From Candidatus Nanoarchaeia archaeon (GTDB taxonomy: Archaea > Nanobdellota > Nanobdellia > SCGC-AAA011-G17 > JACPNG01), in assembly GCA_028714095.1 (NCBI GenBank), contig JAQTMY010000001.1, forward strand, positions 2,147-66,146: a DNA stretch of 64,000 nt, in the 5' to 3' direction. Each line of letters opens with the position of its first letter. Position 1 is the stretch's first letter. Shown here piece by piece: positions 16,734-63,801 of the stretch. The notes below the pieces were generated by a model that saw only the letters and a list, made by a program, of their open reading frames with translations, did not search any database and was not told the origin of the DNA. Both the position numbers and the translations under genes were made by a program.

Positions 16734-16734
16734 A

Positions 16735-20855: not shown

Positions 20856-21387
20856 AGTTCTCCCCTATCAGTTTTCCAATAAAGTACTTTCCATTTACAG
20901 GGTAATAAACTGATATAGGAACACTAAATATGCTCTTGCTCTTAAAATTAGGTTTTGGATTTTGATAAATAATAAACTCATTGCAGTTCATTGGATAGTT
21001 TCCATAGTCTACCTTAAACATTTTTATACAATCTCCTTTCTTGATCTCAAAAGGAGCCTCAATAATCTCTATCCTGAATGTTCTAAACCCAAACACATCA
21101 TAATAATCCTCTTTGTTAACTTTTTCATTAAAGGCAATTATCTTTAAACTGTCTAAACATCTTTCTTCCTTATTCCTAAAGCTGCACTGGAGTTCTGGCA
21201 TTCTTGAAACATAGCTAAGTAAAACATCTGCTCTTTGATCAGCTAAATCCTGGGTTTTACTTTCAATGTCAGATTTTTGGAACTTAAAATAAAACACAAC
21301 AGCAAGAACCATAAGAATTATAATAACTATAACTACCATAATGGTTTCAATAAGTCCAATCTGTCCTTTCCTAGAATACTGTTTCAC
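20848..21387 (-). CDS. class III signal peptide (pilin-like) protein
   Basis: MKQYSRKGQ|IGLIETIMVVIVIII. Overlaps its neighbours by 8 and 17 nt. Confidence 0.55.
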   Translation of the reverse strand: MKQYSRKGQIGLIETIMVVIVIIILMVLAVVFYFKFQKSDIESKTQDLADQRADVLLSYVSRMPELQCSFRNKEERCLDSLKIIAFNEKVNKEDYYDVFGFRTFRIEIIEAPFEIKKGDCIKMFKVDYGNYPMNCNEFIIYQNPKPNFKSKSIFSVPISVYYPVNGKYFIGKLIGENYE

Positions 21388-25300: not shown

Positions 25301-26106
25301 TTAATCTCAGAAGAATTCCCGCATATTGTTCCAAAAGCATAATCACAATTTCCGCATGATTTGTCATTTAAAGTTGCTTTACAGTTTACTTCTGTAATAT
25401 ATCCTTTGTTATAGCTTGTGTCTTTGTTAGAAGAATAAACATTTTCCCTGTTGCCACAAGAATCATACCAGTAAACTTTTCCTTGATAACAGTCTGTATG
25501 GTGTTGTTTAGAACATCCGCAGCTTAACTTATCGTTGCTGCATAGCATATCTTTAAAAAATCCTTCCCTGGTTTCATTATTCCCCTCTGCCATGTTGCAT
25601 GCGCTTCTTGTTGTGAATGAACAGGAATTTCCATTTACACAGCATCCAGTTTCCTGGCTTCTAGATTTAGCCAGACATGTTTTTTCATCAGTTATAGAGC
25701 TGTCAAAAACAGTGCCAACTCCAGTATATTTCGAGCCTGTTTCCTTGCATTTTACCTCTGTAACAAAAAATGCCTCTGTTCCAATCATACAGCATCCATT
25801 ACTGCATTGAGGAACGCTACAAGAAGCATCAGAACTAAAAGTTCCTTTTTTATTATCGCATGTAGCTTGTGGAGTATTCTTAAAACATCTTCCATCGTCC
25901 TGCGAAAAACAGCAACCTAAATTGCAATAGCTTGTCTGTTCGCATGTTGCATAATTTTTTCTGAATCCATTCATGCAATATTTTTCATCAGTATACTGGC
26001 AGTATTCTCCAGAAGTAGTTTTTTCACAGCATGCATCAGTAGCCATAACAATGTTTACTAAACTAAGCAAAACCATTCCAAAAATAAAAAATTTAAACGC
26101 TTTCAT
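22354..26106 (-). CDS. giant (1250 aa) cysteine-rich secreted surface protein, paralog A
   Basis: Sec signal peptide MKAFKFFIFGMVLLSLVNIVMA. More than 90 Cys. Conserved blocks shared with 26957..30286 (RKNGESWCIYEG...VGSRQYRALCINGEEI, CNLWSAPDGGDNCEKC, GPDLTAPII). Four C-terminal ~100-aa modules each ending in Y.Y(V/I)(R/K)C.D..GN. Confidence 0.6.
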   Translation of the reverse strand: MKAFKFFIFGMVLLSLVNIVMATDACCEKTTSGEYCQYTDEKYCMNGFRKNYATCEQTSYCNLGCCFSQDDGRCFKNTPQATCDNKKGTFSSDASCSVPQCSNGCCMIGTEAFFVTEVKCKETGSKYTGVGTVFDSSITDEKTCLAKSRSQETGCCVNGNSCSFTTRSACNMAEGNNETREGFFKDMLCSNDKLSCGCSKQHHTDCYQGKVYWYDSCGNRENVYSSNKDTSYNKGYITEVNCKATLNDKSCGNCDYAFGTICGNSSEIKPMYGDYICKDVNCEVTTEYESSPNAGEKRKNGESWCIYEGTVGKGQDLVGSRQYRALCINGEEIIEQCKDYREEFCIQQTQGSNISSLLESFGLKKGYIEAGCVPNRYQLCSACNDANILKNLYGGKCSGLEDPVPDAEAGSLVSGLDSTEESTNVNEAQILCAAKECCNDNVNKDCYWSEGSGSIFSFLSEDEYNQYLDGDEQKFYKDWEKSANGKCVPNIPPGMKFWTVSYNSGGNSSVSTDSTSECSKGNQECKVEWIRGGFARVWGFITDQDQGYDCVKNCQCMAEDWVISGNNYCRSLGDCGAYYNFNGDATFDGYVNTASAEKENDDLYFNGYKLKESDLGNVNALVSGSSNRERVSEFSKRWNWGNWLALGLQIGTTAYGGIFGSKNLEKAAQGGLNPLQILSGYSAFGTVVENSVIEGIRKNAELALTSDMRLLSIASNPELKKQFIEKAVSEELAEKGIEKVGENYVQKTILGNIMGTVNTIMTYYQILKLIDIVASEQQEKTYTISCNLWSAPDGGDNCEKCNDEKLGCSEYKCKSLGKTCELVNKGTTEEKCVDLNPRDVNSPIIEPLIKDKTIKYKKDANGYEVETEIKAYEAVKIGIKLNEPGQCKIDMEQGKEFDSMASNFQDSLLRYEHETTLNLPDELTDAKALKFSNGGKYTIYVRCKDGKGNANEKDYYIKFKIGTGPDLTAPIIYGTSPINNAYIASNIVDMPLSVFVSEPSTCKWSTNDIEYDDMNNIFSCVQSGLAVSSYASGSYECKTILKSVHQYRKFYIRCADQPGEKSRNYNSESYVFETRETEPLNITDIGPEGTFYNGEINLEVETIGGAENKASCYYSDLNTVIANMIKFETTDGTKHSQDLNLSNGNYILYIKCQDIAGNKAEDKLSIKITVDNYTPNLNQIYTTSSVLHIELDEEAKCEYDTIDSFKFGDGTLMTGEDTKIQEATLVEGAAKYYIKCRDKFNNELSAIIYI

Positions 26107-26909
26107 GCAAACCTATTCTCTCCCTGAATAGCAAACTGGAAAATATACTCATTTCCTTCTTTGGTTATTGTATAAACCTTGTCAGGATATGGTTTTTTCA
26201 GATAAAGTTTATATTCTCCTTTCTTGGCCAGCATATAAGTTAATGTATCAAAGTTTCCGCTTACAGCCTCTCCGCTAAATACATCCCATCCGTTTATTAC
26301 TTCCTGAGAAACATCATATAAATTTCCAAGGGGATAATCAAACATAACTTCAAATTTATCTTCAGATACACTTATATCTTTAGATTTTCCCTTAAGAGTA
26401 ACCAACCAGTTAACATTAAGAACAACACTATCAGGTCTTATAACAAATTGATAGTTTGGTTTATCTTGTACAATTATATTATAAGATTTAAGATTTCCAG
26501 TATTTTTTATCTCATTTAAACAAGAATCCATAAAATACCCTACATTTTCATTAAGCTGATCTTCCATATTCTTAAGAGTTAGCATCCTATTACTGCAGCT
26601 TTCTTTGTCAGGAATATTATAACATAAATAACTTATTTTATTGTCAGCATAAAGAATATAGGTTCCTTCGGGAGTCTCTAGATATCCTCCTTGCTTGCCA
26701 ATAGCCTGCAATAACGAATTAGGGCTGTTTAAACTATTATCATACCCGCAGCTTATTATTGCCTCTTTGATAGACTCCATCTCACCTTCAAGACTTTCAG
26801 TAGTAACAGGCATGAATATTGTCTTTCTACCAATTAAAAACAAAGCAACTAAAACAACTATAACTATTCCTAATATAACAAATAAAGTTACCTGACCTCT
26901 TTTTCCCAT
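26103..26909 (-). CDS. class III signal peptide (pilin-like) protein, 268 aa
   Basis: MGKRGQ|VTLFVILGIVIVVLVALFLIG. Homologous N-terminus to 62792..63535. ATGA overlap with the downstream giant gene. Confidence 0.6.
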   Translation of the reverse strand: MGKRGQVTLFVILGIVIVVLVALFLIGRKTIFMPVTTESLEGEMESIKEAIISCGYDNSLNSPNSLLQAIGKQGGYLETPEGTYILYADNKISYLCYNIPDKESCSNRMLTLKNMEDQLNENVGYFMDSCLNEIKNTGNLKSYNIIVQDKPNYQFVIRPDSVVLNVNWLVTLKGKSKDISVSEDKFEVMFDYPLGNLYDVSQEVINGWDVFSGEAVSGNFDTLTYMLAKKGEYKLYLKKPYPDKVYTITKEGNEYIFQFAIQGENRFA

Positions 26910-26956
26910 TTTATCTCTCCTTTGATTTATTTTTATATTTTAAAAAATTTTGCTTT

Positions 26957-29900
26957 TCAAACATTTATACTATAGGCGGGGTTTATGTTCCCTTCACTAT
27001 CATTACATATAAAATAATACCTTCCCCCCTCCACAATAAATAAATGTTCCCCAACAACTTTCTCAGTTTCAGTTCCCTTACCAAAACCAAAATCACTCCT
27101 TGAATATTCGCAATCCGCATCCTCATCCAGTACAACATGTACAGTATTATCCTGCCTATATAACTGGGTTATTATTGGATAATAAACATCCTTGATAATA
27201 TTAAGATTAATAATCTGACTTGCTTTATTCCCAGCAACATCAATACATTCTATATTATAATTATAATTTCCCAATGCTAAATCTTCAAATTCCTGGCTAT
27301 GTATTATATTATCAGTTTCCTTAAATTCTATTCCATTATAGCTACATATTGCTTTTCCGTTCTCGGCCCCGCCGGAAGTTGCAACATTAAGGGTAAACGA
27401 ATTACTGTATAATGTTCCAGACTTTGGGGAATAATCCTCAATGACTAAAGTATCAGATTGTTTTAATGTTAATGGATAAGCATCCTCATTTACATTTTCA
27501 GCATTGTCAGAACATTTAAAATAATAATTAACTAACTTATCTTCAAACTTTAAATTAACATTAAAGCTGCATATAAATTTATTTTCTCTGCTTATACAAT
27601 TAGTTTCCTCTTTCATACCATCATAGTCCTCATTCTCACTAGAATATTTACATTTAGTTGGTTCATTTGTATAAATATTAATTAATATTTTAGTTAAATC
27701 TGCCTGGATATAACTCCCATCAAGAGGATCGCTTGTCTCAATAATTGGAGCAGTCAAATCTGGCCCTTCTTTTGTGTTAAATCTTATTAAATAAGAAGCT
27801 TCGTTGGCATTAGAAGTCTTTCCCTTACATCTTACATATAAATTATATTTTTTGTTTGGTTCAGTAAGAATATTTAATGAATGTTTTGTTTCATAATAAC
27901 CTTCTCCAAAATAACTTACCATTTCATTGTAATTATCATCTACATTTTCAGAAAACTTACATTGTGCAACTTTATCTGTTTTAATCCCTAAACTTAGTCT
28001 TGTATAAGCAGGAACATCTGGATTTATTTTATATCCTTTGGTTTCTTCATTTAACTTAAATCCCTTAGTTAAATTCTCAGGCCATGCAGAAATTATTGGA
28101 GAGCTTACATCTCTAGATTCTACCTTAACACAGGCAGGTCTGTCAGTTCCAGCATTCTCTTCTATAAACTCACACAAAGTTCCTAAACTTTCACATTTAT
28201 ATTTTGAACATTCTTTGAATTTTCCATATTCATTATCTACCTTTCCGCAATCTTCGCAATTATCCCCATTGTTTGGAATGTTCCACATATTGCATTCAGT
28301 GGAAACTACTCTTGATTCCTTTGTTGTTGCAAAAATATTTAAGATTGTAAACACAGCAAACACAACCAAAGCAACAGTAACAATTGTTCCAATCGTTCCA
28401 GAGCTAAATAAAGTTCCTAACCATCCCCCCCCAGACTCACTAGCAGTTCCTCCGGCCTGTATAATATTTCCAAATAAGATATTACCAAACGTAGTATCCG
28501 CTCCAGTAAATAAAGTAGCAACTTCAGCGGCAGCAATTCCTGCTGTCCCCAAAACCCCCAAAGTATCAGCACTCACATCAAAAAATCCGCCAGTAAATAT
28601 TCCAGTATTAATTTTATTATAATCTAAACCTTGATTTTTATTAATATCCTCATAATTTATTTTTCCAGCATACAATCCAGAATTAAGTTCAGCTAATTTT
28701 TCCTTGTTAATCAATAAAAGAGCTTCTGTAATTTTAGTCAAAGGCATATTTTTCAGTTCAGGATATTGATCCAAAAAATCACCAAAATCATCCTCAGGAT
28801 CTTCAATTACACTATCCCATTTTCTTGAAAAACCATCATTATTAAATTCATTCTTCCAGTTATATTTAGCTCCGCAATCCCCAGCAGCATTACACAAATA
28901 ATTGCTTAACTGCAGCCATTTATTTGAATAAGCTTCACATCCGCTTGAACAATCATTTGTATCTATGACAGAATCCTGGCTCCAAACCGTCAAAGCACTA
29001 TTAACTCCGTTTTCACAAATCTTAGAATTCTCTCCAAGATTGCCAGGAACAACCAAAGGCAAACATCGTCCATTGACTTCATTTAATTTTAATTGTTCTT
29101 TCTCCATATCTTCGGTCTTTGTCGTATTCAAGGGCAGCCAGTAACAGTCATTATTTTTAGACAAACAGCATTTAAGATCATTTTCCATTGCATTTGCATA
29201 ATCTATAACTTCTCCTTTGTACAAATCATCATCGTCATAAGTCATAGGGATTAATTCATAAGCAGAGTTGCATTCAGTCATACATTTTTCATAATTATTT
29301 ATTTTGCAGGAAGCCTCTCTAAAAGTTTCACCATTAACAGTAACGTCTGCATAAACACAAAATTCATTTCTGTAATCTTCACATGGCTCCTCAATCTCCT
29401 CGCCATTAATGCATATATGTCTGTAATGCCTGCTTCCAACAGAATCTAAACCAGGACCAGTAGCAGAATCATAAATACACCAGGACTCTCCATTCTTCCT
29501 GAAAACTCCAGTACCTTTAGTATTTTCATCCTTATAAGTACTCTCACAGTTTATGCTATAGCAGTCAACTTTATTTTTTTCCTCTCTGCATTTAAGCCCT
29601 TTCTGATAATCACATTTCTTGACTAAACTTTCTTTATTTCCGCAGCTGTCAAAAGAATAAACATCTCCCTCATAACATTGGTTATAGCTGTTCTTAGTGC
29701 ATCCACAAAAACCTACATCAGAACATAATTTATTTTCATAAAATTCTCCAGAACATGAATTGGAAGTTGTATACTTACATCCTTCATCCAAACAACAACC
29801 ATAAATTCCTTCTTGGCAGCTTAAACTGCATGAACTTTCTCCAGTTCCTTCCTGAAAAGTAAAATCTAAATTATTATAATCATTTGCTGTTTGCTCACAT

Positions 29901-30286
29901 TTAAACTTATTGACATAACTGCACTCAGTTCCTATCTTACAGCAACCCTCCTGGCATTTGGAATAAGCACTACAGTCAGGACTTGAAAAAAATTCTCCGC
30001 CTTTTTCAGTGCATTCCTGTTTAGAAGTATTGTCAAAACATGAACCTTCAGATTTTAAAAAACAGCAGCCATACTCCTCTGCCTTGACATCCTTAAAATT
30101 TAATAAAGAAATTGAGAAAATAGCAACAATTATGATTATAATTTCAAATAAAGCCTTAGCTCTCGCAAACCTCTCTTTCATAACATAAACAACAATAAAA
30201 CTTATTTTAAATAGTTTACTAATGAACATAATCATCCAGATTGGAGGGATTAACAACTCTTTTTGGATCACAATAACTCTTCTCAA
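26957..30286 (-). CDS. giant cysteine-rich secreted/membrane surface protein, paralog B
   Basis: The likely true start is the internal Met at 30181 (MKERFARAKALFEIIIIIVAIFSISLL... signal peptide), giving about 1074 aa. Same conserved blocks as paralog A. Internal Gly/Ala/Thr-rich hydrophobic region with one clear 22-aa hydrophobic helix. Confidence 0.6.
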   Translation of the reverse strand: MRRVIVIQKELLIPPIWMIMFISKLFKISFIVVYVMKERFARAKALFEIIIIIVAIFSISLLNFKDVKAEEYGCCFLKSEGSCFDNTSKQECTEKGGEFFSSPDCSAYSKCQEGCCKIGTECSYVNKFKCEQTANDYNNLDFTFQEGTGESSCSLSCQEGIYGCCLDEGCKYTTSNSCSGEFYENKLCSDVGFCGCTKNSYNQCYEGDVYSFDSCGNKESLVKKCDYQKGLKCREEKNKVDCYSINCESTYKDENTKGTGVFRKNGESWCIYDSATGPGLDSVGSRHYRHICINGEEIEEPCEDYRNEFCVYADVTVNGETFREASCKINNYEKCMTECNSAYELIPMTYDDDDLYKGEVIDYANAMENDLKCCLSKNNDCYWLPLNTTKTEDMEKEQLKLNEVNGRCLPLVVPGNLGENSKICENGVNSALTVWSQDSVIDTNDCSSGCEAYSNKWLQLSNYLCNAAGDCGAKYNWKNEFNNDGFSRKWDSVIEDPEDDFGDFLDQYPELKNMPLTKITEALLLINKEKLAELNSGLYAGKINYEDINKNQGLDYNKINTGIFTGGFFDVSADTLGVLGTAGIAAAEVATLFTGADTTFGNILFGNIIQAGGTASESGGGWLGTLFSSGTIGTIVTVALVVFAVFTILNIFATTKESRVVSTECNMWNIPNNGDNCEDCGKVDNEYGKFKECSKYKCESLGTLCEFIEENAGTDRPACVKVESRDVSSPIISAWPENLTKGFKLNEETKGYKINPDVPAYTRLSLGIKTDKVAQCKFSENVDDNYNEMVSYFGEGYYETKHSLNILTEPNKKYNLYVRCKGKTSNANEASYLIRFNTKEGPDLTAPIIETSDPLDGSYIQADLTKILINIYTNEPTKCKYSSENEDYDGMKEETNCISRENKFICSFNVNLKFEDKLVNYYFKCSDNAENVNEDAYPLTLKQSDTLVIEDYSPKSGTLYSNSFTLNVATSGGAENGKAICSYNGIEFKETDNIIHSQEFEDLALGNYNYNIECIDVAGNKASQIINLNIIKDVYYPIITQLYRQDNTVHVVLDEDADCEYSRSDFGFGKGTETEKVVGEHLFIVEGGRYYFICNDSEGNINPAYSINV

Positions 30287-50093: not shown

Positions 50094-50237
50094 ATGGCAA
50101 AAAATGAAAAAGTAAAAAAATTTTTATTGGAAGTTCCGGAAGAAATCTGGAATAAATGGAAAGACAAGGTTCCTCGTTCTGTATCTTTGAATAAAGCATT
50201 AATTGAATTGCTAAAAAAAGAGGGGGAGAAAAAATGA
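50094..50237 (+). CDS. small (47 aa) ribbon-helix-helix-like protein, not in ORF track
   Basis: MAKNEKVKKFLLEVPEEIWNKWKDKVPRSVSLNKALIELLKKEGEKK. ATGA overlap with the next gene. Confidence 0.3.
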   Translation: MAKNEKVKKFLLEVPEEIWNKWKDKVPRSVSLNKALIELLKKEGEKK

Positions 50238-50992
50238 AAAAGTTCTTCTTATTTGCTCTTGTTGGAATTTTCTTTATGTTATCTTTTAGTTTTGTATCCG
50301 CAGCACGCCTCCCGACAGTCGGAGGAGATGAGGGTGTTTGGGGAACGGTGTTGAATGATTATCTAAATGTTTCATTAAATGAATCAGGAGAAATCCGTCC
50401 AGCTAATCTAACTTTCGCGCAAAAAGTAACTTTTGCTTTTGGAGAAATTATAGACAATGTTGTTGATGGATGGATTACTATCACTGGAAATTTGAAAGTA
50501 ACCGAAGATGCGGTCATTAATAAAAGTTTGAATGTTACTGAAAACATAAATGCAGAAGGAAATATGACTGCAGATTATTTTATTGGTGATGGAAGTCAAT
50601 TAACTGGAATTAGCAGTGGCGGGGGGGGCTTGATATCTGATGTTAATATTACATCCGGAACTTATACAGGAGCAATAACTTCTGGGGGGGATACTGGCTA
50701 TAAAGCTGCAGATGATATATGTGATTCTGAATTTTCAGGAAGTCATTTCTGCACAGAATTTGAAGTAGCTACCTGGAGCTCTAAATCTATTGATGGAGAA
50801 GATGCATGGGTTATTGCAGGAAGTCCAAAATATGTTCCAGCAGACATTCCGGTTAATGATTGTAATGGCTGGACTCATGGGAGTGCAGGAACTTATCTTG
50901 GAAATTACTGGCATTTTGGCTCAACAACTGGAGGTGATGGCAGAGCAATTCAGTGTGGAACATCATTGAAACTTGCCTGTTGCTCTTATTAA
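50234..50992 (+). CDS. secreted protein with tail-fibre-like GDGSQLT motif and Cys-containing C-terminal domain
   Basis: Sec signal peptide. YFIGDGSQLTGIS is shared with the downstream giant protein. Confidence 0.5.
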   Translation: MKKFFLFALVGIFFMLSFSFVSAARLPTVGGDEGVWGTVLNDYLNVSLNESGEIRPANLTFAQKVTFAFGEIIDNVVDGWITITGNLKVTEDAVINKSLNVTENINAEGNMTADYFIGDGSQLTGISSGGGGLISDVNITSGTYTGAITSGGDTGYKAADDICDSEFSGSHFCTEFEVATWSSKSIDGEDAWVIAGSPKYVPADIPVNDCNGWTHGSAGTYLGNYWHFGSTTGGDGRAIQCGTSLKLACCSY

Positions 50993-50994
50993 AC

Positions 50995-53900
50995 ATGAAA
51001 AAAATAGTTATTTTAATTTTTTTAATACTTTTCTTGGTTGAAATTGTTTCTGCATCTACATGGGTTAATAATCCCAGTGATTGCCCTACCTCTGCACAAT
51101 CACAAACCTGTTCGGGAAGTGATGTTGTATGTGGTTTAAACGGAGGAATAACTTATTGTTATAATCCTTCTTCATTAATTCCTCCTTCAAGTTCTGCAAA
51201 CAGTACAACCTCTTACTCAAGTAGTTTTGACGGAGGATATATTTTAGATTGTGATTCTTACGATGGTTCTGCTCCTAATTGTGATAATTCTGGAAATTTT
51301 TGGTGTGATAGAAGTGAAACTTGTTATTCAACAGCATATAGAAATACTTTGTGCACAGCAGACACATGGGAAACAGCTACTTGCGGAACATGTAGGACTG
51401 GATATTTTGATTGTTACGGTGACACTAACTGTGAAAGCACATCAACTTCAGATTGCCAAGGCAGTAATAATAATCATTACAGTACCGGAACATGCAATAC
51501 AGATTTAAGTGGAGGCGCTTCAGGAACCTGTGTTTGTGATACAAATTATTATGCATGCGACGGAAGTGAAACAGATTTAGATGGCTGTGAAATCCATACA
51601 GGAAGTTCATGTTCATTAGGAACAGGAACATATTCTGGGTCTTGCTATGGTTCAGTAGGTGAATGTACTTCTTCTACAAACTCTGATTGTAATAATGATG
51701 ATTCTGATAGCAACATAGGAACCTGTAACGGAGCTGACGGATGTGAGATAATTTCAGGAGCAAGTTGTGGAAATGGTACTGGAACTTATGCTTCTCATCA
51801 GTGCATTGAATCAAGTGGAAATTGTACAAGTTCTGGAACTAGGCTTGATTGTAATAATGACGATTCTGATTCTAATACTTTAACATGTAATGGGGCTGAT
51901 GGATGCGAAGTAACTGATGGAGGTGCCTGCACTGTTGGAACCTTGCAAGGAACTTATGATGGTTGCAGCTGCGTTGTTACGCAATCAAACTTCAAAACAG
52001 GAGATGAAACATCATATTCAACAGATAATGCTCTTCTTTGGGGTTCACAATATGGAACAGGTTATCTTATGAATTTCACCAATGGGACAGACATAAAATT
52101 TGGAGTAAACAATTCAGGTTGTGTTGTTTTTCCAGATGGAACAACACAATGTACAGGAACATTACTAACTGATTTCACAAATGTTGCTTATATAAACCAA
52201 TCAAATAATTTTTCAGAAAATCAAGATTTCTCTTCAAATATTACTGTGGAAGACACAGGATCTTTTGGATTTTTGGGAAGTTTGGTTAACAGAATTACTA
52301 AATTATTTGTTATTGACATTGATGCTTCAGGAAATGTTAGCATTGGTGAGGATTTAACAGTTGGTACAAATACTTTAGTTGTAGACTCCAATAATAATAG
52401 GGTAGGAATAGTGGAATCTAACCCATCAACAACATTAGATGTCAATGGAGGTGCGCGTTTTTCAGGAACAACATCTAACGTAGAAGGAGAATTAGTTTAT
52501 AATAATGTAGGGGGTTATTATCAGTATTATAATGGTACGGCATGGGTTACCTTAACAGGTGGAGACGCAACTTTTACAGGTACATTATGGTCTCAAGATG
52601 GAAACAATATTTTTTATAATGACGGCTCAGTTGGTATGGGGGTAACAGCACCAACACAAAAATTAGATGTTAATGGAAATTTAAACATCTCAGGTTATTA
52701 TTATGGAGATGGGAGTCAGCTAACAAACATTTCAACTTACAATTCAACTTATGATATCTGGGCATACAATCAGACAACTCCTGCTATGGATTATACTGAT
52801 GAAATAAATTTAAGCTTATCTTCAAGAATTGATAATATTGCCGAGGATAATTCATCATGGAATGAGAGCTATGCAGATACAAAGTATGCAAATATTTCTT
52901 GGAATTATAATCAGACAACCCCTGCTATGGATTATACTGATGAAATAAATTTAAGCTTATCTTCAAGAATTGATAATATTGCCGAGGATAATTCATCATG
53001 GAATGAGAGCTATGCAGATACAAAGTATGCAAATATTTCTTGGAATTATAATCAGACAACCCCTGCTATGGATTATTCTAATAGTCTAAATAATTCCTTG
53101 ACCACATGGGTATCCTCAAATTACTTACTCACTTCAATATTTGATTCAGAAAATATATCAATTTGGAATGCAATAAATTCAGGCTTTAATCAATCATTAG
53201 CTGATGTATTATATTATTCAGTAAATAATCCAAGTAATTATATAAATAAAACAAATCTTTCTGAATTTACAGATGACTTAGGAAGCAGGGGATATGACTC
53301 TTTGTCTAATTTTACAAATGATTTAGATTTGTCTGCATATAACCAGACAGATCTGGCACTTGAAATAAATTTAAGCTTATCTTCAAGAATTGATAATATT
53401 GCCGAGGATAATTCATCATGGAATGAGAGCTATGCAGATACAAAGTATGCAAATATTTCTTGGAATTATAATCAGACAACCCCTGCTATGGATTATATAG
53501 ACTCTGTTATCAGTGATGATAATGACAGTTGGTCCTCTACTTACAATTCAACTTATGATACAAAAGCAGATTATCAATTTACAAATAATAACTTTAATGG
53601 CTCAGGAAACATTGAAACTACAGGAAGTATTGGAATTGGAACAACAGCATCTGCAAATAGTAGAATCAAAGTGGATATAAATAATCCTTCCGGTCCTGCT
53701 TATACAATAATTGAAGGTTATACTGCTTCTACAAGAATACTGTCTTCTTTGGTTTTAACTACTAATACAAGTAGGGGAAAAGGGATATTAATGGAAGATA
53801 CTCAATATAATGAAACTTGGTATACAGGAACTCCTTATTTCTCGAGAAATTATCAAATAGGGTATTATAATGCAGCATTACTTTATGACGGAAATGGGGG

Positions 53901-56900
53901 TGGAGAAAATGCATCAGATCCTTTGAATGCATACATGACAATAACTACTTCTGGAAGTGTTGGTATTGGAACGATTTCACCAACACAAAAATTAGATGTT
54001 AATGGAAATGTAAACATCTCAGGTTATTATTATGGAGATGGGAGTCAGCTAACAAACATTTCAACTTACAATTCAACTTATGATATCTGGGCATACAATC
54101 AGACAACTCCTGCTATGGATTATATAGACTCTGTTATCAGTGATGATAATGACAGTTGGTCCTCTACTTACAATTCAACTTATGATATCTGGGCATACAA
54201 TCAGACTACTCCTACTATGGATTATATAGACTCTGTTATCAGTGATGATAATAACAGTTGGACCTCTACTTACAATTCAACTTATGATATCTGAGCATAC
54301 AATCAGACAACTCCTGCTATGGATTATATAGACTATGTTATCAGTGATGATAATGACAGTTGGTCCTCTACTTACAATTCAACTTATGATATCTGGGCAT
54401 ACAATCAGACAACTCCTGCTATGGATTATATAGACTCTGTTATCAGTGATGATAATGACAGTTGGTCCTCTACTTACAATTCAACTTATGATACAAAAGC
54501 AGATTATCAATTTACAAATAATAACTTTAATGGCTCAGGGAATATGACCACTACTGGAAGAATTGGTATCGGAACAACCAATCCAAGTCAGATGCTAACT
54601 CTTTACGAGCAGGATGGTTCTACAGATATTAGACTAGATACAGGAGCATCACAAGGGTTTTATTATTCTGACATTATGAATAATTATAATACCAACAACG
54701 CATTTCAGATTACAACCGGAGGAGGGAATATAATCTCATCAACTTCTCACGGTTACAAAACTACAATTGGGGGTGGGGACGCTATTCTTGTTGTTTCTTC
54801 GACAGATAAAAATATTCAATTAACAAGTGATGTTGGAATAGGAACTTCTTCTCCAACACAAAAACTTGATGTAAATGGAAGCATAAATGCAAGCGGGGAT
54901 TTGTTTCTTTCTAACGGCACTAATTCTAAAATAGAATTTTATGGAGGATTAATTTTTTCAGATGATTATTCCTCTACAGCAAATGCACGGATAGCAGCTT
55001 CAGGCGATAATATTTATCTTCAAAATACCAATTCTTCAGGGGGAATAGTCTTTAGTGGAACAGGAGGTACATCTATCGAAGGAGATATTATTTTAAGCAC
55101 AACTGGAAATGTCGGAATCGGAACAGCAAGTCCGACAGCAAAACTGGATGTTAATGGAAATGCGGTTGTTGAAGGAAGCTTAAATGTCACGCAGAACGCA
55201 ATTGTAAACGGAAATGTTGGAATTGGAACAGCTTCTCCGACTGCAAAACTTGAAGTTGTTGGAAATGCAGTTACAAACGATATAACAAACTGGACTGCCC
55301 AATCAGCTTCTGGAACAAGTGCTTGGGATTCTGTGACTTATGGGCATGAATTATTTGTTGCGGTTTCAACTTCTTATCCCAGGGTCATGACTTCTACTGA
55401 CGGTATAACCTGGACTAACAGAACTGCATTTTCAGCAGATCCATGGAGATCAGTAACTTATGGAAACGGATTATATGTTGCTGTTGGTGATGGCGGAGCA
55501 ATCATGACTTCCCCTGAGGGGATAGCATGGACAGGAAGAAGTGGTGGAACAGACGATTATGTTTCTATAATTTATGCAAATAATTTATTCGTCGCTGTTG
55601 GTAATCGTGGCGATCATGAATTAATAACTTCTTATGATGGAATAAGCTGGAATGTTAGAAGTCTCCCTGCAAATAATGAATGGGTCGGAGTAACGTATGG
55701 AAATGGGACGTTTGTCGCTGTCAGTAATAATACTGGTGCTGCCAATCAGGTTATGACTTCTACTAATGGTATAGACTGGACTCTAAGAAATGCATCCAAG
55801 GTTGCTACTTGGCAGTCTGTAACTTATGGAAACGGATTATTTGTAGCCGTCGCATATGATGGGGATGTCTCGAGTTCGCCAGATGGGATAACCTGGACTA
55901 ACAGAACAGCATCTTCAGCAAGTACGTGGAAATCAATAGCTTATGGAAATGGGAAATTTGTAGCGGTTTCAATTGACGGGAACATAATGACTTCCCCTGA
56001 TGGGATAAGCTGGACTGATCAAACAGCTCCAGAGGCAAACTCTTGGCAGTCTGTAACTTATGGAAATGGGAAATTTGTAGCGGTTTCATCTGATGGAACC
56101 AACCAGGTCATGACTTCAGGGGACATAGAAGGAAATCTTTTTACACTTAGTGACTCCGACGGAACCTGCATCCACAATCCAGAAGCAGGAAGTGAAACAA
56201 TTTCATGTTCTTCAGACAGAAAATTAAAAGATAATATTACAGATGCTACTCCAGTATTGGATGAACTTGAAAAAATAAAAGTCAGAGATTACACAATTAA
56301 AGCTTCAGGAGTAGAAACAACAGGAGCAATTGCACAGGAACTACAGGAAACAAATCCGGACATGGTTCATGAAGAGAATGGAGAGTTATTTGTTGAACAG
56401 CCAAACCCATGGAAATTACTGAAAGCAATTCAGGAGTTAAGTGCAAGAATTGATGCTTTGGTTGGAGGGACTTATTCTGTTCAAGTTAAAAATGTTAATC
56501 AAGATCAAATTGGGGTCGCTAAAATTGGAGTTAATGAAACTGAAGGTTATGTTGAATTTAATAAAGAGTTTTCTGAAACTCCGGTTGTGACTGCTACAGT
56601 TATTGGCTTGCCTAGTTTCTTTTATGGAGTGGATGAAATTACTGCAAAGGGATTTAAGATTTTGATTAGTTCACCACAAGATAAAGAAATAAGTTTTAAT
56701 TGGCGTGCTTCAGGAGAGACTTCAAGTAGTGAAATAGATTATAATCAAACTCTTAGTGAAAGTTTAGAATCAAATATTAATATCTCTGAGAATGAAACTC
56801 TTGAGGTTAATATAACTATTCCTGAGGAAAATGAGAATATGAGTTCTAATGAGACTATCGAAGTCCTTGAAGAGAATACTACTTTAACAAATGGAACTAA

Positions 56901-57105
56901 TTTAACTATTCCTGAAATAAATGAAAATATTACAGAGAGTAACGTGACTTTAAATGAAACTATTAAGGTTAATGAAAATGTCACTAAAAATCTAAGCGAG
57001 GGAATAATCAATCAATCAAAGTCTCCTGAAGAGAATTCAGATACAAGCATTATGGTAAACAAAAAAGATTATCTGGAGGGAGATGTTAAACATTTTAAAC
57101 AATAA
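50995..57105 (+). CDS. giant (~2050 aa) phage-tail-fibre-like surface protein: Cys-rich modules, tandem repeats, BNR propeller, S74-type intramolecular chaperone domain, sequon-rich tail. The frame is interrupted by one in-frame TGA at 54292..54294
   Basis: Signal peptide MKKIVILIFLILFLVEIVSAS from 50995. The two track ORFs (50953..54294 and 54319..57105) are in the same frame. Repeated DCNNDDSDSN.TCNGADGCE modules. 39-42-aa tandem repeats. 6x S.DG(I)(T/S)W Asp-box. SSDRKLKDNITDATPVLDELEKIKVRDYTIK, the S74 ICA hallmark. Confidence 0.6.
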
Positions 57106-58125
57106 ATGTCAATTAAAAAAAAACTTATTTTTCTTGAAATAATAACTTTGCTAATTTTAATTCCATTAGTTTATGCAAACAGTTATGGATCTAGCACCTA
57201 CGGAAATACTATTTATGGAGGAAACGAAAGCTCTGTTTTATATTGTGGTGACGGTGTATGCAATAATGGAGAAACTTGTTCTTCATGTTCTGCTGATTGT
57301 GGAATCTGCAGTGGAGGATCCAGGGGGGGTGGAGGGTCTAGTGGTGGTGGAGGAAGTTCAAATATTACAACTTACCAATGCTCTTTAGATTCAGATTGCA
57401 GAACAAATCAATATTGCTTTAATCACACCTGTTATAATGCAGAATGTTTTGATGATTCTTCCTGCAATGTAAAAAAAGGAGAAATTTGCTGGAATCATAG
57501 ATGTGTGAAATTATTTGATATGGAAATATTGAGTTTTGAGTCTCCTGTAAAGGTTGGGGAATTTTTTAATTTTACTTATTTTGTTAAAGCTGTAGCTGAA
57601 ATAAATGGTGATGTTCAGATTGATTTTTGGATTGAGAATAAAGATCAGAATAAAATTGCTTCTGGAAGAGATACAATTTATATGTCCAGTTTTGAAGAGA
57701 AAACAAAAGCCAAAGAATTATTCTTACCGAGTGATCTTTCTTCAGGAAGTTATATGTTTTATATTCAAGTAACTTACGGCACATATACTGCTGAAGCTCA
57801 CAGGAATATAGAAATAAACATTGATGAAAATGGATTAGCCACAATAAGTCTAAATTCAGAACTAAATTATTTATCTATTTATTTTCTTTCCGCACTAATC
57901 GGACTGGGAGTTTTTATTGTTTGTTTAATTTTCTATTTGGAAAGAAAGAAAATAAAAAAAGGACTAATAAAAGAAGAAAAATGGGTTAAGAAACACAAAA
58001 TCTCAATTTTGGTTTTATTTTTATTAATTATCATTGGAATTTTGATTTATTATTTTAGATGGGACCGAGTTATAGTGGACTGGATCAAGGAGGTTGTTTA
58101 TTGGATGAAGAGTAGACTCGCTTAA
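57106..58125 (+). CDS. Cys-rich secreted protein with Gly-rich linker, beta-sandwich-like domain and C-terminal TM anchor
   Basis: Signal peptide, then CGDGVCNNGETCSSCSADCG, a GGSRGGGGSSGGGGSS linker and two C-terminal hydrophobic helices. Confidence 0.5.
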   Translation: MSIKKKLIFLEIITLLILIPLVYANSYGSSTYGNTIYGGNESSVLYCGDGVCNNGETCSSCSADCGICSGGSRGGGGSSGGGGSSNITTYQCSLDSDCRTNQYCFNHTCYNAECFDDSSCNVKKGEICWNHRCVKLFDMEILSFESPVKVGEFFNFTYFVKAVAEINGDVQIDFWIENKDQNKIASGRDTIYMSSFEEKTKAKELFLPSDLSSGSYMFYIQVTYGTYTAEAHRNIEINIDENGLATISLNSELNYLSIYFLSALIGLGVFIVCLIFYLERKKIKKGLIKEEKWVKKHKISILVLFLLIIIGILIYYFRWDRVIVDWIKEVVYWMKSRLA

Positions 58126-58213
58126 TTCAATTAATTCTAATCATTTATTTTCAGAAGTTAAAACTATTCTTATCAAAACCTTTAAATAACCCTTTTCTCA
58201 CAAAAAACATTAA

Positions 58214-58287
58214 GGGATCGTAGTTCAACCTGGGAGAACACCAGACTGAAGCTCTGGACGTTGTGGGTTCAAATCCCGCCGATCCCA
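58214..58287 (+). tRNA. tRNA-Phe (anticodon GAA)
   Basis: 74-nt cloverleaf: acceptor GGGATCG/CGATCCC, D stem GTTC/GAAC, anticodon stem CCAGA/TCTGG with loop CTGAAGC, T stem GTGGG/CCCGC with loop TTCAAAT, discriminator A. No encoded CCA. Confidence 0.9.
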
Positions 58288-58340
58288 TATCAAAATATTT
58301 ATATAATAAAATAAATTCAATAATTAAGAGGTGAAACCTT

Positions 58341-58847
58341 ATGAATAAAAAAGGTGCAATTGAACTTTCAATTTCTACTATAGTTATAGTTGTAATCGGA
58401 GTTACATTATTAGTATTAGGATTAACATTTGTAAGAGGAATCTTCAAAAAAGTTGGAGGCCTTACAGATCAATCATTTCAGGCTGGAGAAAAATTAATCC
58501 AGGATCAAATGTCTTCAGATCAGAAATTCTACATATCAGGAATCACATTTGAACTTGAATCAGGAGGAAGCCAGACAATCTATACAGGAATACAAAACTT
58601 TGGCGACCCCGGAAAGACAAATTCATTTGAATTAAAAGTTGAGCCAGGACAAAATCTTGGGAAGGATTGGTTTACCTTGCCTGGGAAAATGAATGTAAAA
58701 GTAGGAGAAAGAAAAGCATTTCCTTTTGTAGTCACAGTCCCTAAAGGAACAACCCCTGGAAGCACTTATACCTTTAATATTATTGCATACAAAGATAGCC
58801 AGGAATATGACAGCCAGGCAATAATAGTTAGAGTTGCCTCAGAGTAA
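58341..58847 (+). CDS. class III signal peptide (archaeal pilin-like) protein
   Basis: MNKKGA|IELSISTIVIVVIGVTLLVLGL. AAGAGGTGA RBS upstream. Confidence 0.6.
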   Translation: MNKKGAIELSISTIVIVVIGVTLLVLGLTFVRGIFKKVGGLTDQSFQAGEKLIQDQMSSDQKFYISGITFELESGGSQTIYTGIQNFGDPGKTNSFELKVEPGQNLGKDWFTLPGKMNVKVGERKAFPFVVTVPKGTTPGSTYTFNIIAYKDSQEYDSQAIIVRVASE

Positions 58848-60020: not shown

Positions 60021-62795
60021 TTAAAATACTCCACAATCTTCTAACCACTTTCTAGTTGTCATCCGAATTAAAGAGTTTAAGCGAGGATTTTTAAGTTCAT
60101 AACCTCCCGAATCATCTGGTTTAGGTTCTCCTCCACTCCAGGGGAAATAAACTTTTGTTCTTTGTTTCAGAAATTTCTTTCCTAGTGATTCCCCTGCATT
60201 ATAATATAATGAAGACCAAAAAAAGATTTCATCATCAGTGAGTTTATTTAGTTCCTCTTCTCCATATAAATCTTTAAAATCTGATAGAAAACTATATTTT
60301 CTTTGAGCAAAAACGCCGGCAACAGCAATAAGCCCATCTCGCAATGTCTCAAACTCTGCAGGAGTTACTCTCTCAGTGTCTGCTTGATTCATTATAGACT
60401 TGATTGATTCTATCCTCAAAGTCGAGGGGATAAACCTCCCATCCATAAGTCTCCTTTGTTCATTCTTGTCTCCCAATGTATCCAACCCAAGATAAAGATA
60501 TCCTCCCGCTGGAACATTATGCCCAAAGTAATATGTTGAAACTACAGCCCCCCCTTCAGCCATATAAGTAACAAACACCTCGGAAGGGGCCACTTTAATC
60601 CCATATTTATTATTATTAGCAGAGTCAGAAGCCTCATATATCCACCTTGCCAAATCATCTTCTACATATTTTTCATTTAAGAATCCAAAATAAGATCTTG
60701 GCCTCACCCCCCACTGCTCTTGAATATTTTTTTTAACATTTTTTATTACAATCGGATCAACATCAATACCTCGCTGGATAGTCTTTTCCCAAGGGTAACT
60801 AACATCCAAAATAACCCCTCCTTCTTTGTTAGAAAGTAAAAACTCATCAAGTACATATTGGTTATTAAGAACAAAATCATAAGAAACTAGGTCTGGGTTT
60901 TCCTTATTAAAAGAGAATAGTACATCTTCTTCACTGGAAGAAACTTTTACTCTACCATCGGTCAGTTCCACATCTCCTTCAACACTAATATCAAAAGGAT
61001 ATCCAAACAAGTATTTGGAAACCTTCTCCTGATTGTATATCGCTTCTTCATCTAACCTTGCATTATTTTCTTCATCCTCTTCCTCATCCATTCCAAGTAT
61101 ATTATAATGGAGAGTCTCCCCCACTCTCTCAGCCTCAATATTTAAAGGAAAAAAAGGCAGCATATAATCATCATCATACTTAATATTGTTTCTAACATAA
61201 TCTTCTCTTAAATCTCTCAGATTAGCAGGGACTAGCAGATTTCCGGTTTTGCTTCTTATTGAATCTCCATTCCATTCTTCCGTGATTATAGAATTTTTCA
61301 TTACATTATAATATCCTGTAAGCTGGAAATAAAAAAAGCAAGAATCTAAAATAGGGCCCACTTCTTCTGCAGATAATTTTTCCTCAAGAACGGAGTGTAT
61401 ACTTGATGCACCACCCCCCCCATACACAACCTTGATCTTTGGATAATAAACCTCTTCTACCTTTTCCAATTCCTCTTTTCCATACGTTGTCTCCAGTTTT
61501 TTAATTTCAGAATCAATAATAGATTCAAATTCTTCACGATTCTGTATTACTTTCGAATTAAGCAATTCCTCCCAAAAATTATACTGATGCAAAGCTTCTG
61601 AACCCCCAGCAACAGAAAAATCATACATAGTTTTATCCTTACCCAGGTCATTATAGGTTTCCTTTAAGGCTTCATCCAAACCTTCACCGGAATCAATATA
61701 CGTTTTTAGTTTAGCTAGCATCCAGAAAATAGGTTTTTTATCTCTCTGCTCCTGGTTTATTCCTTCTTTTTTGTTAATCTCAATTCTCCCTCCGTTAACA
61801 GACACCTCAAAGAGGGTTTTTTTAGTTAAGGGAGACGCATAAATTATGATACTATCTATGAACTCTGGGAATATTTTATTTCCCTCCACTAGATTAAAGC
61901 TAAAGCCAGAACCCCCAGCCCAAATCTTTGCAGATCCCTGTGCAAAATAGTTCTCATCTTCATGTTTTGAATAATCAAAATTATTATCATAGTACATATT
62001 TACTTCAGGGCCCTTTACCCTAAAAATAAATCCATTAAAATCAACTTTTGTATTACTTGAAATCTTATCCAATTTTCCATTTAAAATCGTAATTGAACCA
62101 GAGCCCTTCTCTAACCCCCCCACCTTAATAGAATCTTCTCCTAAAAATGCACGGAAATGTCCAGTAATCTGGTTTCCTTTTATAACTAATTTACCATCAA
62201 TAATCTCAAGGTCCTTAATTCCAAAAAGTTTTCCTTCAGGGATAACGGATAAATCTATTTTCTTACCTAACAATTCAGATTCAAGGACCTCCCCCTCTCC
62301 ATTAAGTTTTATCCAACTGTTGGGATCAAAATTTTTAGAATCATAGAGAGATTTCAAAATAATCTTTTCTTCCTTACCATCTTTTTCAACAACCTTTTCA
62401 ATATTTAATTCAATTGATCCCTCTTTTTTTAAGGTTATTTTTGTGAGTCCATCTTGTTTTTCAAATCTAACATTCCTAACAATAATCCAAGAATCTTTCA
62501 GCTTAATTCCAACCAGATTCCCAAGGGTTAAGGAATTCTTAACATCTATACTCGCATCAACAACCTTTCCTTTTTCATCAACAACCAAATTTCCAATTTT
62601 AACTCCACTTTTTAAAAATCCCTTAATCTGATTATATACCCCCACTAATTGGGTAGGAACCTCTTGCTCACCAGATTGATCTTCTAAAATAAGATTTCCA
62701 GAAGGATCAACCCTTAAAAAAAACTGGGAATCTCCAGTTACGATCGGGAGTACAATCAAAATACAAACAATCCCAAAAAGACACTTTCTTATCAT
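60021..62795 (-). CDS. giant (924 aa) secreted protein of unknown function
   Basis: Sec signal peptide MIRKCLFGIVCILIVLPIVTG. ATGA-coupled to the upstream pilin-like gene. Confidence 0.5.
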   Translation of the reverse strand: MIRKCLFGIVCILIVLPIVTGDSQFFLRVDPSGNLILEDQSGEQEVPTQLVGVYNQIKGFLKSGVKIGNLVVDEKGKVVDASIDVKNSLTLGNLVGIKLKDSWIIVRNVRFEKQDGLTKITLKKEGSIELNIEKVVEKDGKEEKIILKSLYDSKNFDPNSWIKLNGEGEVLESELLGKKIDLSVIPEGKLFGIKDLEIIDGKLVIKGNQITGHFRAFLGEDSIKVGGLEKGSGSITILNGKLDKISSNTKVDFNGFIFRVKGPEVNMYYDNNFDYSKHEDENYFAQGSAKIWAGGSGFSFNLVEGNKIFPEFIDSIIIYASPLTKKTLFEVSVNGGRIEINKKEGINQEQRDKKPIFWMLAKLKTYIDSGEGLDEALKETYNDLGKDKTMYDFSVAGGSEALHQYNFWEELLNSKVIQNREEFESIIDSEIKKLETTYGKEELEKVEEVYYPKIKVVYGGGGASSIHSVLEEKLSAEEVGPILDSCFFYFQLTGYYNVMKNSIITEEWNGDSIRSKTGNLLVPANLRDLREDYVRNNIKYDDDYMLPFFPLNIEAERVGETLHYNILGMDEEEDEENNARLDEEAIYNQEKVSKYLFGYPFDISVEGDVELTDGRVKVSSSEEDVLFSFNKENPDLVSYDFVLNNQYVLDEFLLSNKEGGVILDVSYPWEKTIQRGIDVDPIVIKNVKKNIQEQWGVRPRSYFGFLNEKYVEDDLARWIYEASDSANNNKYGIKVAPSEVFVTYMAEGGAVVSTYYFGHNVPAGGYLYLGLDTLGDKNEQRRLMDGRFIPSTLRIESIKSIMNQADTERVTPAEFETLRDGLIAVAGVFAQRKYSFLSDFKDLYGEEELNKLTDDEIFFWSSLYYNAGESLGKKFLKQRTKVYFPWSGGEPKPDDSGGYELKNPRLNSLIRMTTRKWLEDCGVF

Positions 62796-63535
62796 TTCTT
62801 AATTAAGAATCTAAACTCCTCCTTAGTTCTTTTACTAATAAGAGATAATGTTAACGAATCTGGATCTTCAAGCAAATTCAGAGAAGGGGATACTTCAATA
62901 ATAAAATTTGATTTGGATAAGTCTTCCAAGCAGGTTATACAAACCCCTTCTATATTATTTTTTGAATAATAATCTACTAAATCTTCAGATAATTTATGCA
63001 AGTCCTTAATATCCGAATCAACAAACTCCTCAGCTTCCAGATTAAATTTTTGATAAGAACTCCCATTAATAAAGAGGTTATAACCCAAAGCAAGCTTAAC
63101 CTTATCATAATCTATCTCTACGCTTACTCCCTCCGCCAGAAGTTCAAAATCCGTACTATTTCCCGCTAAAGAGATTGAACTCAAACATCCCTTAATATTT
63201 TCATTGATATACCCAGAAGTTTCATCCTCAATCCTATTAACTGAAGGGATATACTTATTCTTACTAACAGAATAATATGGAATATCCAAAAGTGCAGATT
63301 TTAGAACTTCGTTTGGAATTTTATAATAACCCCCGTGCCTAGTCACATATAGCAAAGCCTTCTCTCCTATTTCCTTCAAGCAAGATTTAACATAAGGATT
63401 AAATTTCTCAAGCATAAGAGAGTTCATATCTGATTGATTTCGGGAATTTTCCCTAAAAAACAAAAACAAACCAACCACAACCAATATTAGGATTCCAATG
63501 ATAACAAATAAAGTAATCTGCCCTCTTTTCTGCAT
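62792..63535 (-). CDS. class III signal peptide (pilin-like) protein, 247 aa, paralog of 26103..26909
   Basis: MQKRGQ|ITLFVIIGILILVVVGLFLFF. Confidence 0.6.
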   Translation of the reverse strand: MQKRGQITLFVIIGILILVVVGLFLFFRENSRNQSDMNSLMLEKFNPYVKSCLKEIGEKALLYVTRHGGYYKIPNEVLKSALLDIPYYSVSKNKYIPSVNRIEDETSGYINENIKGCLSSISLAGNSTDFELLAEGVSVEIDYDKVKLALGYNLFINGSSYQKFNLEAEEFVDSDIKDLHKLSEDLVDYYSKNNIEGVCITCLEDLSKSNFIIEVSPSLNLLEDPDSLTLSLISKRTKEEFRFLIKK

Positions 63536-63801
63536 ACACTAAACTAAATTTGGAAATATAAAAGACTTTCTATAAAGAAGACCCTATAAATGTGTAACTT
63601 ATGAGTAACAACAAAACAAAAGGTTTATAAATCTAGATTATCTATGAAATCTATTAAAAATTAACTTATTCCGTAGCATCATAAAGGAGGATTACAAATT
63701 TCCGCCATTGGGGTGGAAGACCTTCTTTTTGTTTCGATCCTAATATTTTAGACTTCTTAGCTAAAATTAAAAGCTAAGGAAGAGTTAAAAAAGGAGAAAA
63801 G

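Follow-up and report, generated by a model that had tools for sequence, protein, structure and literature searches.

The window analysed here, a 64,000-nucleotide stretch of a Candidatus Nanoarchaeia archaeon (contig JAQTMY010000001.1 of assembly GCA_028714095.1), contains two gene pairs in which a small protein with a pilin-like N-terminus is encoded directly upstream of a large secreted protein. At locus A (60021-63535) PL-A precedes giant A, and at locus B PL-B precedes giant B2. PL-A and PL-B belong to one family of pilin-like proteins (PL) whose genes adjoin those of large secreted proteins, whose partners fall into unrelated families, and whose members co-vary with these partners. The best explanation, held with moderate confidence, makes PL a dedicated pilin-like adaptor or anchor that serves the large secreted protein of the next gene downstream, acting through a mechanism that we infer from the data below. 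Pilin-like proteins that present non-pilin cargo are a known theme; what is new is PL, a previously undescribed protein family with an unmatched predicted fold. Full-text searches limited to open-access papers brought up no description of the family or of the way it is coupled to large secreted proteins.

PL-A and PL-B are distant members of one family

The original prediction, made from the window sequence, placed four open reading frames (ORFs) in two pairs, each joined by an ATGA overlap. The ORFs and both junctions are confirmed (Table 1), with the TGA of the upstream gene sharing bases with the ATG of the downstream gene. The two pilin-like proteins had further been described as homologous at the N-terminus and in later blocks, and the comparisons bear this out. 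BLASTP aligns PL-A and PL-B over 210 residues (24% identity, E=1e-11), and a weak pairwise signal, above chance at E=0.005, is left when the first 30 residues are removed; in a Smith-Waterman comparison of the trimmed proteins the z-score is 5.7, and none of 1000 shuffles scores as high (0/1000). A B-type profile, built from 45 relatives of PL-B without their N-terminal 30 residues, matches mature PL-A at 41 bits (E 5e-15 for a single comparison), and hhalign gives 95.7%. The positions in common are C52, a GGY motif at 68-70 and C117. At about 18-22% identity, homology past the signal peptide is real, though distant. A likeness confined to the signal peptide is rejected by the mature-domain match. 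The two large partners had been judged not obviously related, and by BLASTP they are unrelated (best E=0.48 for giant A against giant B2); both begin with Sec-type signal peptides.

PL-B has 73 relatives, each of about 250-260 aa. Related loci were collected with a 15-sequence PL-B-type subset and then by a metagenome scan seeded with A-type proteins, which contributed 80 further loci. The pooled set of 169 loci from Woesearchaeota/Nanoarchaeia holds 175 non-redundant PL ORFs, detected with hidden Markov models of the globular domain (first 30 residues removed, E below 1e-5). All related loci come from metagenome-assembled genomes of Woesearchaeota, Nanoarchaeota or Nanoarchaeia. With a threshold of 40 bits, BLAST links all 110 PL proteins that were paired with a partner into a single family, and A-type members stand directly upstream of giant A homologs in L086, L087 and L089.

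Searches of Pfam, NCBIfam, PHROGs and PADLOC with PL-A, PL-B and giant A gave no match to any of the three, and a PDB sequence search with the PL profile gave nothing significant. When PL-A or giant A was the query, a word-index homology search retrieved nothing but the query itself, and full HMMER was needed. PL was not found on IMG/VR viral contigs, which makes a viral origin of the family unlikely.

PL genes lie directly upstream of large secreted proteins

Adjacency was counted for the 114 non-redundant PL members whose downstream sequence extends for 2.5 kb or more. In 100 of the 114 (88%) the next gene, located between -70 and +120 nt from PL, is an ORF on the same strand and no shorter than 500 aa, against a background of 57/954 (6%) for other genes in the same loci. 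A large ORF is still present within 2 kb in the 14 exceptions, which trace to toxin-antitoxin insertions, giants split by frameshift or masked Ns, tandem PL genes and a 453-aa partner. The commonest junction between PL and partner is -4 (ATGA), found in 38 of 110 pairs.

The association also holds in the reverse direction. When partners were picked solely by similarity to giant A, and upstream sequence was present, a PL gene lay immediately upstream in 5/5 cases (P0076, P0078, P0079, P0083, P0098). The three closest relatives of giant A (627-647 aa) have an overlapping upstream gene of 251-256 aa that is clearly PL-A-like, and the bacterial-looking P0114, which consists of the C-terminal domain of giant A only, is without an upstream PL. 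The position of PL upstream of a Sec-signal protein of 450-2150 aa is obligatory and usually overlapping. The recurring cassette that had been proposed, a conserved pilin-like protein of ~250 aa combined with variable large cargo, is well supported by these counts and by the partner clusters described below, and it is much more widespread than the window alone could reveal. The word giant overstates the 924-aa protein, whose relatives mostly have 570-980 aa.

Two unusual arrangements were seen among the pairs. In L007 (same contig as L059), toxin-antitoxin genes (PIN; HEPN, nucleotidyltransferase, HepT) at 10756-11250 and 16249-17585 stand exactly between PL and giant; the usual overlap is lost and the gene order is kept. 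In the metagenomic representative P0092 (381 aa), the sole fused example found, A-type PL residues 1-178 are joined to the second half of the giant A C-terminal domain. P0092 was rejected as a clean 'Rosetta stone' fusion, with its truncated PL and half domain; an in-frame deletion that spans both genes, or a chimera made in assembly, is the more probable origin.

Partners are diverse and co-vary with PL

The 110 partners fall into 11 BLAST-unlinked clusters, namely a Cys-rich B type (n=69, 512-1445 aa), a giant-A type (n=21, 573-983 aa), a huge Ig/fn3 type (n=9, 1536-2151 aa, always with a long PL variant of 624-690 aa), one cluster of four members and seven singletons, relative sizes that are biased by the seeding of the locus sampling with PL of two subtypes. 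Nearly all partners begin with a Sec-type signal. PL subclusters (at least 80 bits) and partner clusters agree at an adjusted Rand index of 0.84, as they should if each PL evolves together with the protein that it contacts.

The long PL variants, of ~620-690 aa, combine an N-terminal PL domain with an unassigned extension. In L098, L118, L124, L129, L134, L141, L147, L160, L166 and L169 they precede proteins of 1536-2151 aa with fn3, Big_13 and Ig-like domains.

The pairs could in principle reflect inherited synteny without functional coupling, that is, an ancestral surface-protein island next to PCNA that grew by tandem duplication. In many loci PCNA does stand just upstream, an A-type pair often has a B-type pair next to it, and tandem duplications of PL with its giant occur. 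However, the partner families are mutually unrelated, so duplication alone cannot create the pairs, and overlapping stop and start codons are kept across very divergent pairs. Moreover, the pair at 60-63.5 kb has moved out of the PCNA island as an intact unit of two genes, and now has a divergent gene on one side and the gene of a ribosomal protein on the other. Synteny without coupling is therefore considered very unlikely.

Within the A-type partners, PL tracks the shared N-terminal domain (N-domain) and not the C-terminal domain (C-domain). The former occurs in 21/21 of these proteins, and the giant A C-domain in just 6/21; the rest, like many N-domain relatives, end in other domains, some of them unassigned. 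Partner C-termini are interchangeable and often directed at the cell wall. PG_binding_1 is found at the C-terminus of the A-type partner in L125 and of a partner from a separate cluster in L105, Gamma_PGA_hydro in L158 (9e-38), and DUF4846, a predicted NlpC/P60-like wall hydrolase (PMC10318531), in L100, P0096, P0098 and others. The partner in L140, an unlinked singleton, has a C-terminal trypsin-like protease domain.

A conserved N-terminal region with swappable C-terminal enzyme domains, as in the 21 A-type partners, resembles the organisation of polymorphic toxins, and the two genes are tightly linked. PL might accordingly be an immunity protein or inhibitor that neutralises a hydrolytic partner to protect the producer. 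Immunity proteins, however, change along with the toxin domain, and their genes usually follow the toxin gene, whereas PL is one conserved upstream family, predicted to be exported and membrane-anchored with a pilin-type N-terminus. It also pairs with non-enzymatic Ig/fn3 giants. Archaeal envelopes contain no murein, so the producer needs no protection from muralytic domains. No recognisable immunity gene accompanies the partners, and the genes that follow them are unrelated housekeeping genes or convergent ones (L31e in the window, a NAGPA-family gene elsewhere). An immunity function is regarded as extremely improbable. Both the immunity and the synteny explanations fit the data poorly.

A near-invariant prepilin-like N-terminus precedes an unmatched predicted fold

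The 175 PL members begin with M-x-K(95%)-[RK]-G(90%)-Q(99%)-[VI]-T(95%)-x-F(97%)-[IV]-I(91%), followed by ~20 hydrophobic residues. The archaeal class III (prepilin) pattern of the FlaFind type, reportedly a short positive leader ending in [KR]-[GA] and then a hydrophobic helix of ~20 residues, fits 161 of the 175. The N-terminus is far more conserved than the remainder of the protein, which is 18-25% identical. Conserved cysteines are the pairs C52/C117 and C199/C202 in A-type members and C54/C96/C105/C130 in the B type. The AlphaFold2 (AF2) model of PL-B (predicted local distance difference test (pLDDT) 93.4, predicted template modelling score 0.83) has an N-terminal helix at 4-31 that continues at 37-55 and is followed by two helix-plus-sheet units, an alpha/beta arrangement. 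Because the fold is unmatched, the label pilin-like rests on the N-terminus and on this helix-then-sheet topology.

The comparison with chaperone-usher systems made in the original prediction does not hold and was rejected. No PapD-like or usher match was found in Pfam, the two-gene operon contains no usher-like gene, and AF2 models PL as an alpha/beta protein behind an N-terminal transmembrane helix, unlike the Ig-fold chaperone of those systems. Archaea of this group are not known to have an outer membrane.

A membrane-tethered assembly chaperone of another kind, a signal-anchored protein which would aid partner folding or disulfide formation after Sec export and be absent from the final surface structure, is assigned a low probability. 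The upstream position and translational coupling would supply such a chaperone first. PL has conserved Cys pairs, the B giants are Cys-rich, and PL subfamilies co-vary with their partners. Conservation of K-R-G-Q-V-T-x-F at 95-99% in an otherwise divergent family nevertheless exceeds what a simple membrane anchor needs, and PL shows no similarity to known foldases. The near-invariant N-terminus therefore argues for recognition by a processing or assembly machinery.

A putative adaptor for secreted cargo

If PL is an adaptor, PL and its partner would be made from one transcript, co-translated and exported by Sec. A prepilin peptidase would probably cut PL behind the conserved K-R-G and leave the hydrophobic N-terminal helix in place. 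The alpha/beta globular domain of PL would bind the conserved part of the partner, which at locus A would be the shared N-domain, and the helix would hold the complex in the membrane or insert it into a type IV filament, possibly at the tip. An anchorless partner would thereby be displayed outside the S-layer. The presentation of cargo that the original prediction had envisaged is likewise inferred.

Several observations weigh against this explanation. Foldseek finds no structure in the PDB or BFVD, pilins included, that matches the PL model significantly. Within ~10 kb of the inspected loci there are no T2SSE/T2SSF-type, type IV filament (TFF) ATPase, platform or prepilin-peptidase genes, the remainder of the genome not having been searched. 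The bias in the sampling of partner families, given above, counts on the same side. Even so, pilin genes commonly stand alone in archaea (PMC4858521).

A more ambitious form of the adaptor model is possible but doubtful. It would make the PL pairs a lineage-specific, plug-and-play system by which Woesearchaeota/Nanoarchaeia display surface weapons and adhesins. One adaptor family would equip the tip of a type IV filament, or of a pseudopilus, that crosses the S-layer with interchangeable Sec-exported effectors such as murein-directed hydrolases, proteases and adhesins with Ig repeats. Cells could then attach to bacterial or archaeal hosts and locally breach their walls.

Locus A encodes a modular secreted protein

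Locus A is a self-contained operon of two genes. The genes upstream of PL-A are divergent, and the operon therefore probably starts at PL-A; downstream lies the convergent gene for ribosomal protein L31e. An archaeal TATA-box-like element, TTTTATAT, was read from the sequence ~21-28 nt upstream of the PL-A ATG, a placement that would give a leaderless or near-leaderless transcript. A scan for sigma-70 promoters and terminators did no better than on shuffled sequence, and the sigma-70 model is inapplicable to archaea. The window has a G+C content of 32.7% and belongs to a 509-kb contig with locus tags PHG05_….

Giant A consists of a Sec signal peptide (MIRKCLFGIVCILIVLPIVTG/DSQ), the N-domain, a unique insert and the C-domain. 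It ends in ...WLEDCGVF, without a C-terminal membrane anchor. A full HMMER scan of 1.84 billion representatives retrieved 142 relatives. The N-domain is present in 47/141 representative relatives as well as in all 21 partners of cluster 1, and the C-termini of these proteins differ; it is likely the PL-binding or scaffold part. The insert explains the length of giant A beyond that of its usual relatives (627-690 aa), and a phmmer search with it against the 141 relatives gave 0 matches.

The C-domain is all-alpha in its AF2 model (pLDDT 89.9). Among 95 sequences, the invariant or nearly invariant residues are E747/G748, G770-x-D772 (G770-L-D772 in giant A) and Y864-x-N866-x-G868 (Y864-Y-N866-A-G868). 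The domain also occurs on its own in proteins of ~250-330 aa, bacterial-looking ones included. Every partner outside the window that carries it is directly followed by a convergent gene of the NAGPA family (PF09992, phosphodiester glycosidase). The NAGPA gene is absent after giant A, where L31e stands instead.

The C-domain is a candidate lysozyme-like or lytic-transglycosylase-like hydrolase, an assignment that is likely but unproven. It is made because of a weak structure and motif signal, the wall-directed domains at the same position in sister proteins and the NAGPA neighbour. The structural signal is non-significant: the best-superposing PDB entries in Foldseek are E. coli MltE (6ghy, 6ghz, 3t36; template modelling score 0.36-0.39, E 1.5-3.9). 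Alignment by hhalign with five E. coli SLT domains places the three motifs on E-S, GLMQ and YNxG in order at P 0.02-0.03 and a probability below 2%, and the Pfam SLT models match neither giant A nor 32 C-domain relatives, even at E<=5. These three results count against the hydrolase assignment. The hhalign value for MltE alone is 0.3%. Neither the C-domain profile nor giant A has a significant sequence match in the PDB, and tblastn finds nothing like the C-domain in phage genomes.

The locus is probably a minimal two-gene version of the system, with a modular secreted enzyme as cargo and a predicted cell-wall glycan hydrolase as its C-domain. Giant A would likely be used against the wall of a host or prey cell.

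A-type and B-type pairs adjoin each other in L090, L091, L108, L109, L120 and L177, in the order PCNA – PL-A and partner – NAGPA (minus strand) – PL-B and giant. In the window the A-type pair has been relocated ~34 kb away as an intact two-gene unit.

Locus B lies in a conserved cluster of pilin-like genes

The description of both pairs as two-gene cassettes is correct for locus A; the copy at 26 kb sits in a conserved cluster of 7-8 genes. On the minus strand of 17852..30286 the order is giant B1 – PL-B – giant B2 – p328 – p179 – p150 – S-layer protein, and it is conserved in about 78 species genomes (78 loci), often with an extra gene of ~165 aa and usually just downstream of PCNA. In 69 non-redundant pairs PL-B is followed by a protein of the giant B2 type. 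In several genomes the paralogous giant B1 comes with a PL gene too, resulting in two or three tandem modules of PL and giant (L069, L078, L082, L049, L007).

The products p328, p179 and p150 belong to three other pilin-like families. A relationship of PL to them was rejected, as hhalign gives the globular parts a probability of at most 1.4%. The cluster has four mutually unrelated pilin-like families, which recall the four core minor pilins of bacterial type IV pili (T4P) and type II secretion systems (T2SS). The N-terminus of p179 weakly matches GspH, PilA and ComGC.

The composition of this cluster bears on a further explanation, in which PL acts as an export piston or pseudopilin that polymerises transiently and pushes the folded partner through the S-layer for release to the medium. 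The four families resemble GspH-K, the cluster ends with an S-layer gene, the PL N-terminus is class-III-like, and the partners, like T2SS substrates, include anchorless Sec-exported enzymes. Yet the one-to-one co-variation of PL and cargo is unlike that of T2SS pseudopilins, which serve many substrates, and no secretion ATPase or platform gene is nearby in the inspected loci. Adhesin-like Ig/fn3 giants also make more sense when retained on the cell. Release by such a piston is thus unlikely. Retention by a PL adaptor would suit the B giants as well, since they are without a C-terminal transmembrane segment.

Giants B1 and B2 have a Gly-rich, hydrophobic transmembrane-like stretch in mid-protein (e.g. 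IGTIVTVALVVFAVFTILNIFATT in B1), between the Cys-rich N-terminal and Ig-like C-terminal halves. The giant B1 ORF starts at TTG, its homologs have 1019-1080 aa, and a signal-like MKERFARAKALFEIIIIIVAIF is found near 30181; the ORF is probably over-extended by ~35 codons, with the true start near 30181 (MKERFARAK...).

Table 1. Features of the window at loci A and B, and NAGPA-family genes at other loci (ids and coordinates of those loci).
Feature	Coordinates	Strand	Description
PL-A	62792..63535	-	ORF, 247 aa; divergent A-type PL member
PL-A N-terminus	63455..63535	-	Class III (prepilin-type) signal-like, MQKRG/QITLFVIIGILILVVVGLFLFF; predicted cleavage after G5, hydrophobic helix retained
TATA-box-like element	63556..63563	-	Putative, upstream of PL-A
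Giant A	60021..62795	-	ORF, 924 aa; partner of PL-A
Giant A N-domain	61746..62663	-	Residues ~45-350
Giant A insert	60999..61745	-	Residues ~351-599, ~250 aa
Giant A C-domain	60024..60998	-	Residues ~600-924, all-alpha
PL-B	26103..26909	-	268 aa; B-type PL, ATGA overlap with giant B2
Giant B2	22354..26106	-	1250 aa; Sec signal, Cys-rich N-terminal half, C-terminal Ig-like domains; Pfam Y_Y_Y, Big_13, DUF4625
Giant B1	26957..30286	-	Paralog of giant B2, upstream of PL-B
Three other pilin-like families	20403..22357	-	
p328	21371..22357	-	
p179	20848..21387	-	
p150	20403..20855	-	
S-layer protein	17852..20104	-	S_layer_C, Pfam PF05124 at 4.9e-10; last gene of B cluster
NAGPA gene, L086	3509-4468		
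NAGPA gene, L087	7871-8797		
NAGPA gene, L089	2688-3632		
NAGPA gene, L090			
NAGPA gene, L091			
NAGPA gene, L177	6073-7068		

Comparison with known systems

The nearest parallels are PilY1-type loci, represented by the bacterial fimU-pilVWXY1E operon and by archaeal T4P loci with PilY/DUF2341-like adhesins (Makarova et al. 2016, PMC4858521). In both cases a large Sec-signal non-pilin protein shares an operon with small class-III-signal proteins, which are thought to carry the PilY1-type protein on the filament. The B cluster, with its four pilin-like families, large non-pilin proteins and S-layer gene, is comparable in composition. However, there is no sequence or domain similarity, and Pfam identifies no DUF2341, vWA or beta-propeller domain in giants A, B1 and B2. 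The PL family is new and its fold unmatched, each partner has strictly one PL, the partner families are interchangeable and include enzymes, and the inspected PL loci are not next to TFF assembly genes. A comparable arrangement has been suggested for archaeal T4P loci of other kinds (PMC4858521; bioRxiv 10.64898/2026.04.22.720090).

A prepilin-type N-terminus also mounts a non-structural module on the surface or filament in the Sulfolobales bindosome and in modular pilins such as Streptococcus sanguinis PilB. There one and the same polypeptide contains the pilin N-terminus and the functional module (PMC8179133; bioRxiv 10.64898/2026.04.22.720090). In the PL pairs, by contrast, the function belongs to a second protein, exported by Sec, to which PL would attach as a non-covalent adaptor.

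The S-layer of Sulfolobales offers another parallel, in which the small membrane-anchored SlaB tethers SlaA, a co-transcribed, large, anchorless secreted protein. SlaB differs from PL in its C-terminal transmembrane anchor, its position downstream of slaA and its single partner. PL carries its pilin-type anchor at the N-terminus and pairs with partners of many types, and no homology between the systems was detected. The PilY1-type loci, the bindosome and the modular pilins are not homologous to PL or its partners either.

Large extracellular murein-lytic proteins and peptidoglycan hydrolases of Woesearchaeota, Pacearchaeota and Nanoarchaeota are documented (PMC8204110, PMC9723730, PMC12352652). 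Like the PL partners, they are large, modular, secreted proteins of the same lineages with wall-binding or wall-degrading domains, and the sister proteins of giant A carry PG_binding_1, Gamma_PGA_hydro and DUF4846. The giant A C-domain differs in that Pfam SLT models do not recognise it and its resemblance to GH23 is weak. The passages of these papers on pilins and pili make no mention of an upstream pilin-like partner gene.

Implications for DPANN archaea

Little is known of how Woesearchaeota and other DPANN archaea attach themselves to other cells and exploit them, and most of their lineage-specific proteins are unannotated. The PL family (78 sampled species genomes, 78 loci), so far a set of hypothetical proteins, acquires a clear role that can be put to the test: it is the obligatory companion of large adhesin-like and wall-hydrolase-like proteins that are secreted. 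It is also connected to large extracellular lytic proteins already suspected in predation or episymbiosis. The PL profile may serve as a genomic marker for surface effectors that domain databases miss, giant A and its C-domain being an example. If the adaptor model is true, the uses of type-IV-pilin-like proteins would extend to non-covalent, modular cargo display in archaea. Display on a filament tip, the more doubtful form of the model, would if true also explain in mechanistic terms how DPANN archaea live as episymbionts or predators, and PL would be a new fold by which non-pilin cargo is linked to type IV filaments.

Other surface proteins near locus A

A run of Sec-signal surface proteins of 252, 1113, 928 and 339 aa is encoded on the plus strand at 50234..58847. 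The 928-aa protein has a Peptidase_S74 domain and EPTP matches. Peptidase_S74 is the endosialidase intramolecular chaperone, typical of phage tail fibres. The run is closed by a UpsA-like pilin gene at 58341..58847 (plus strand).

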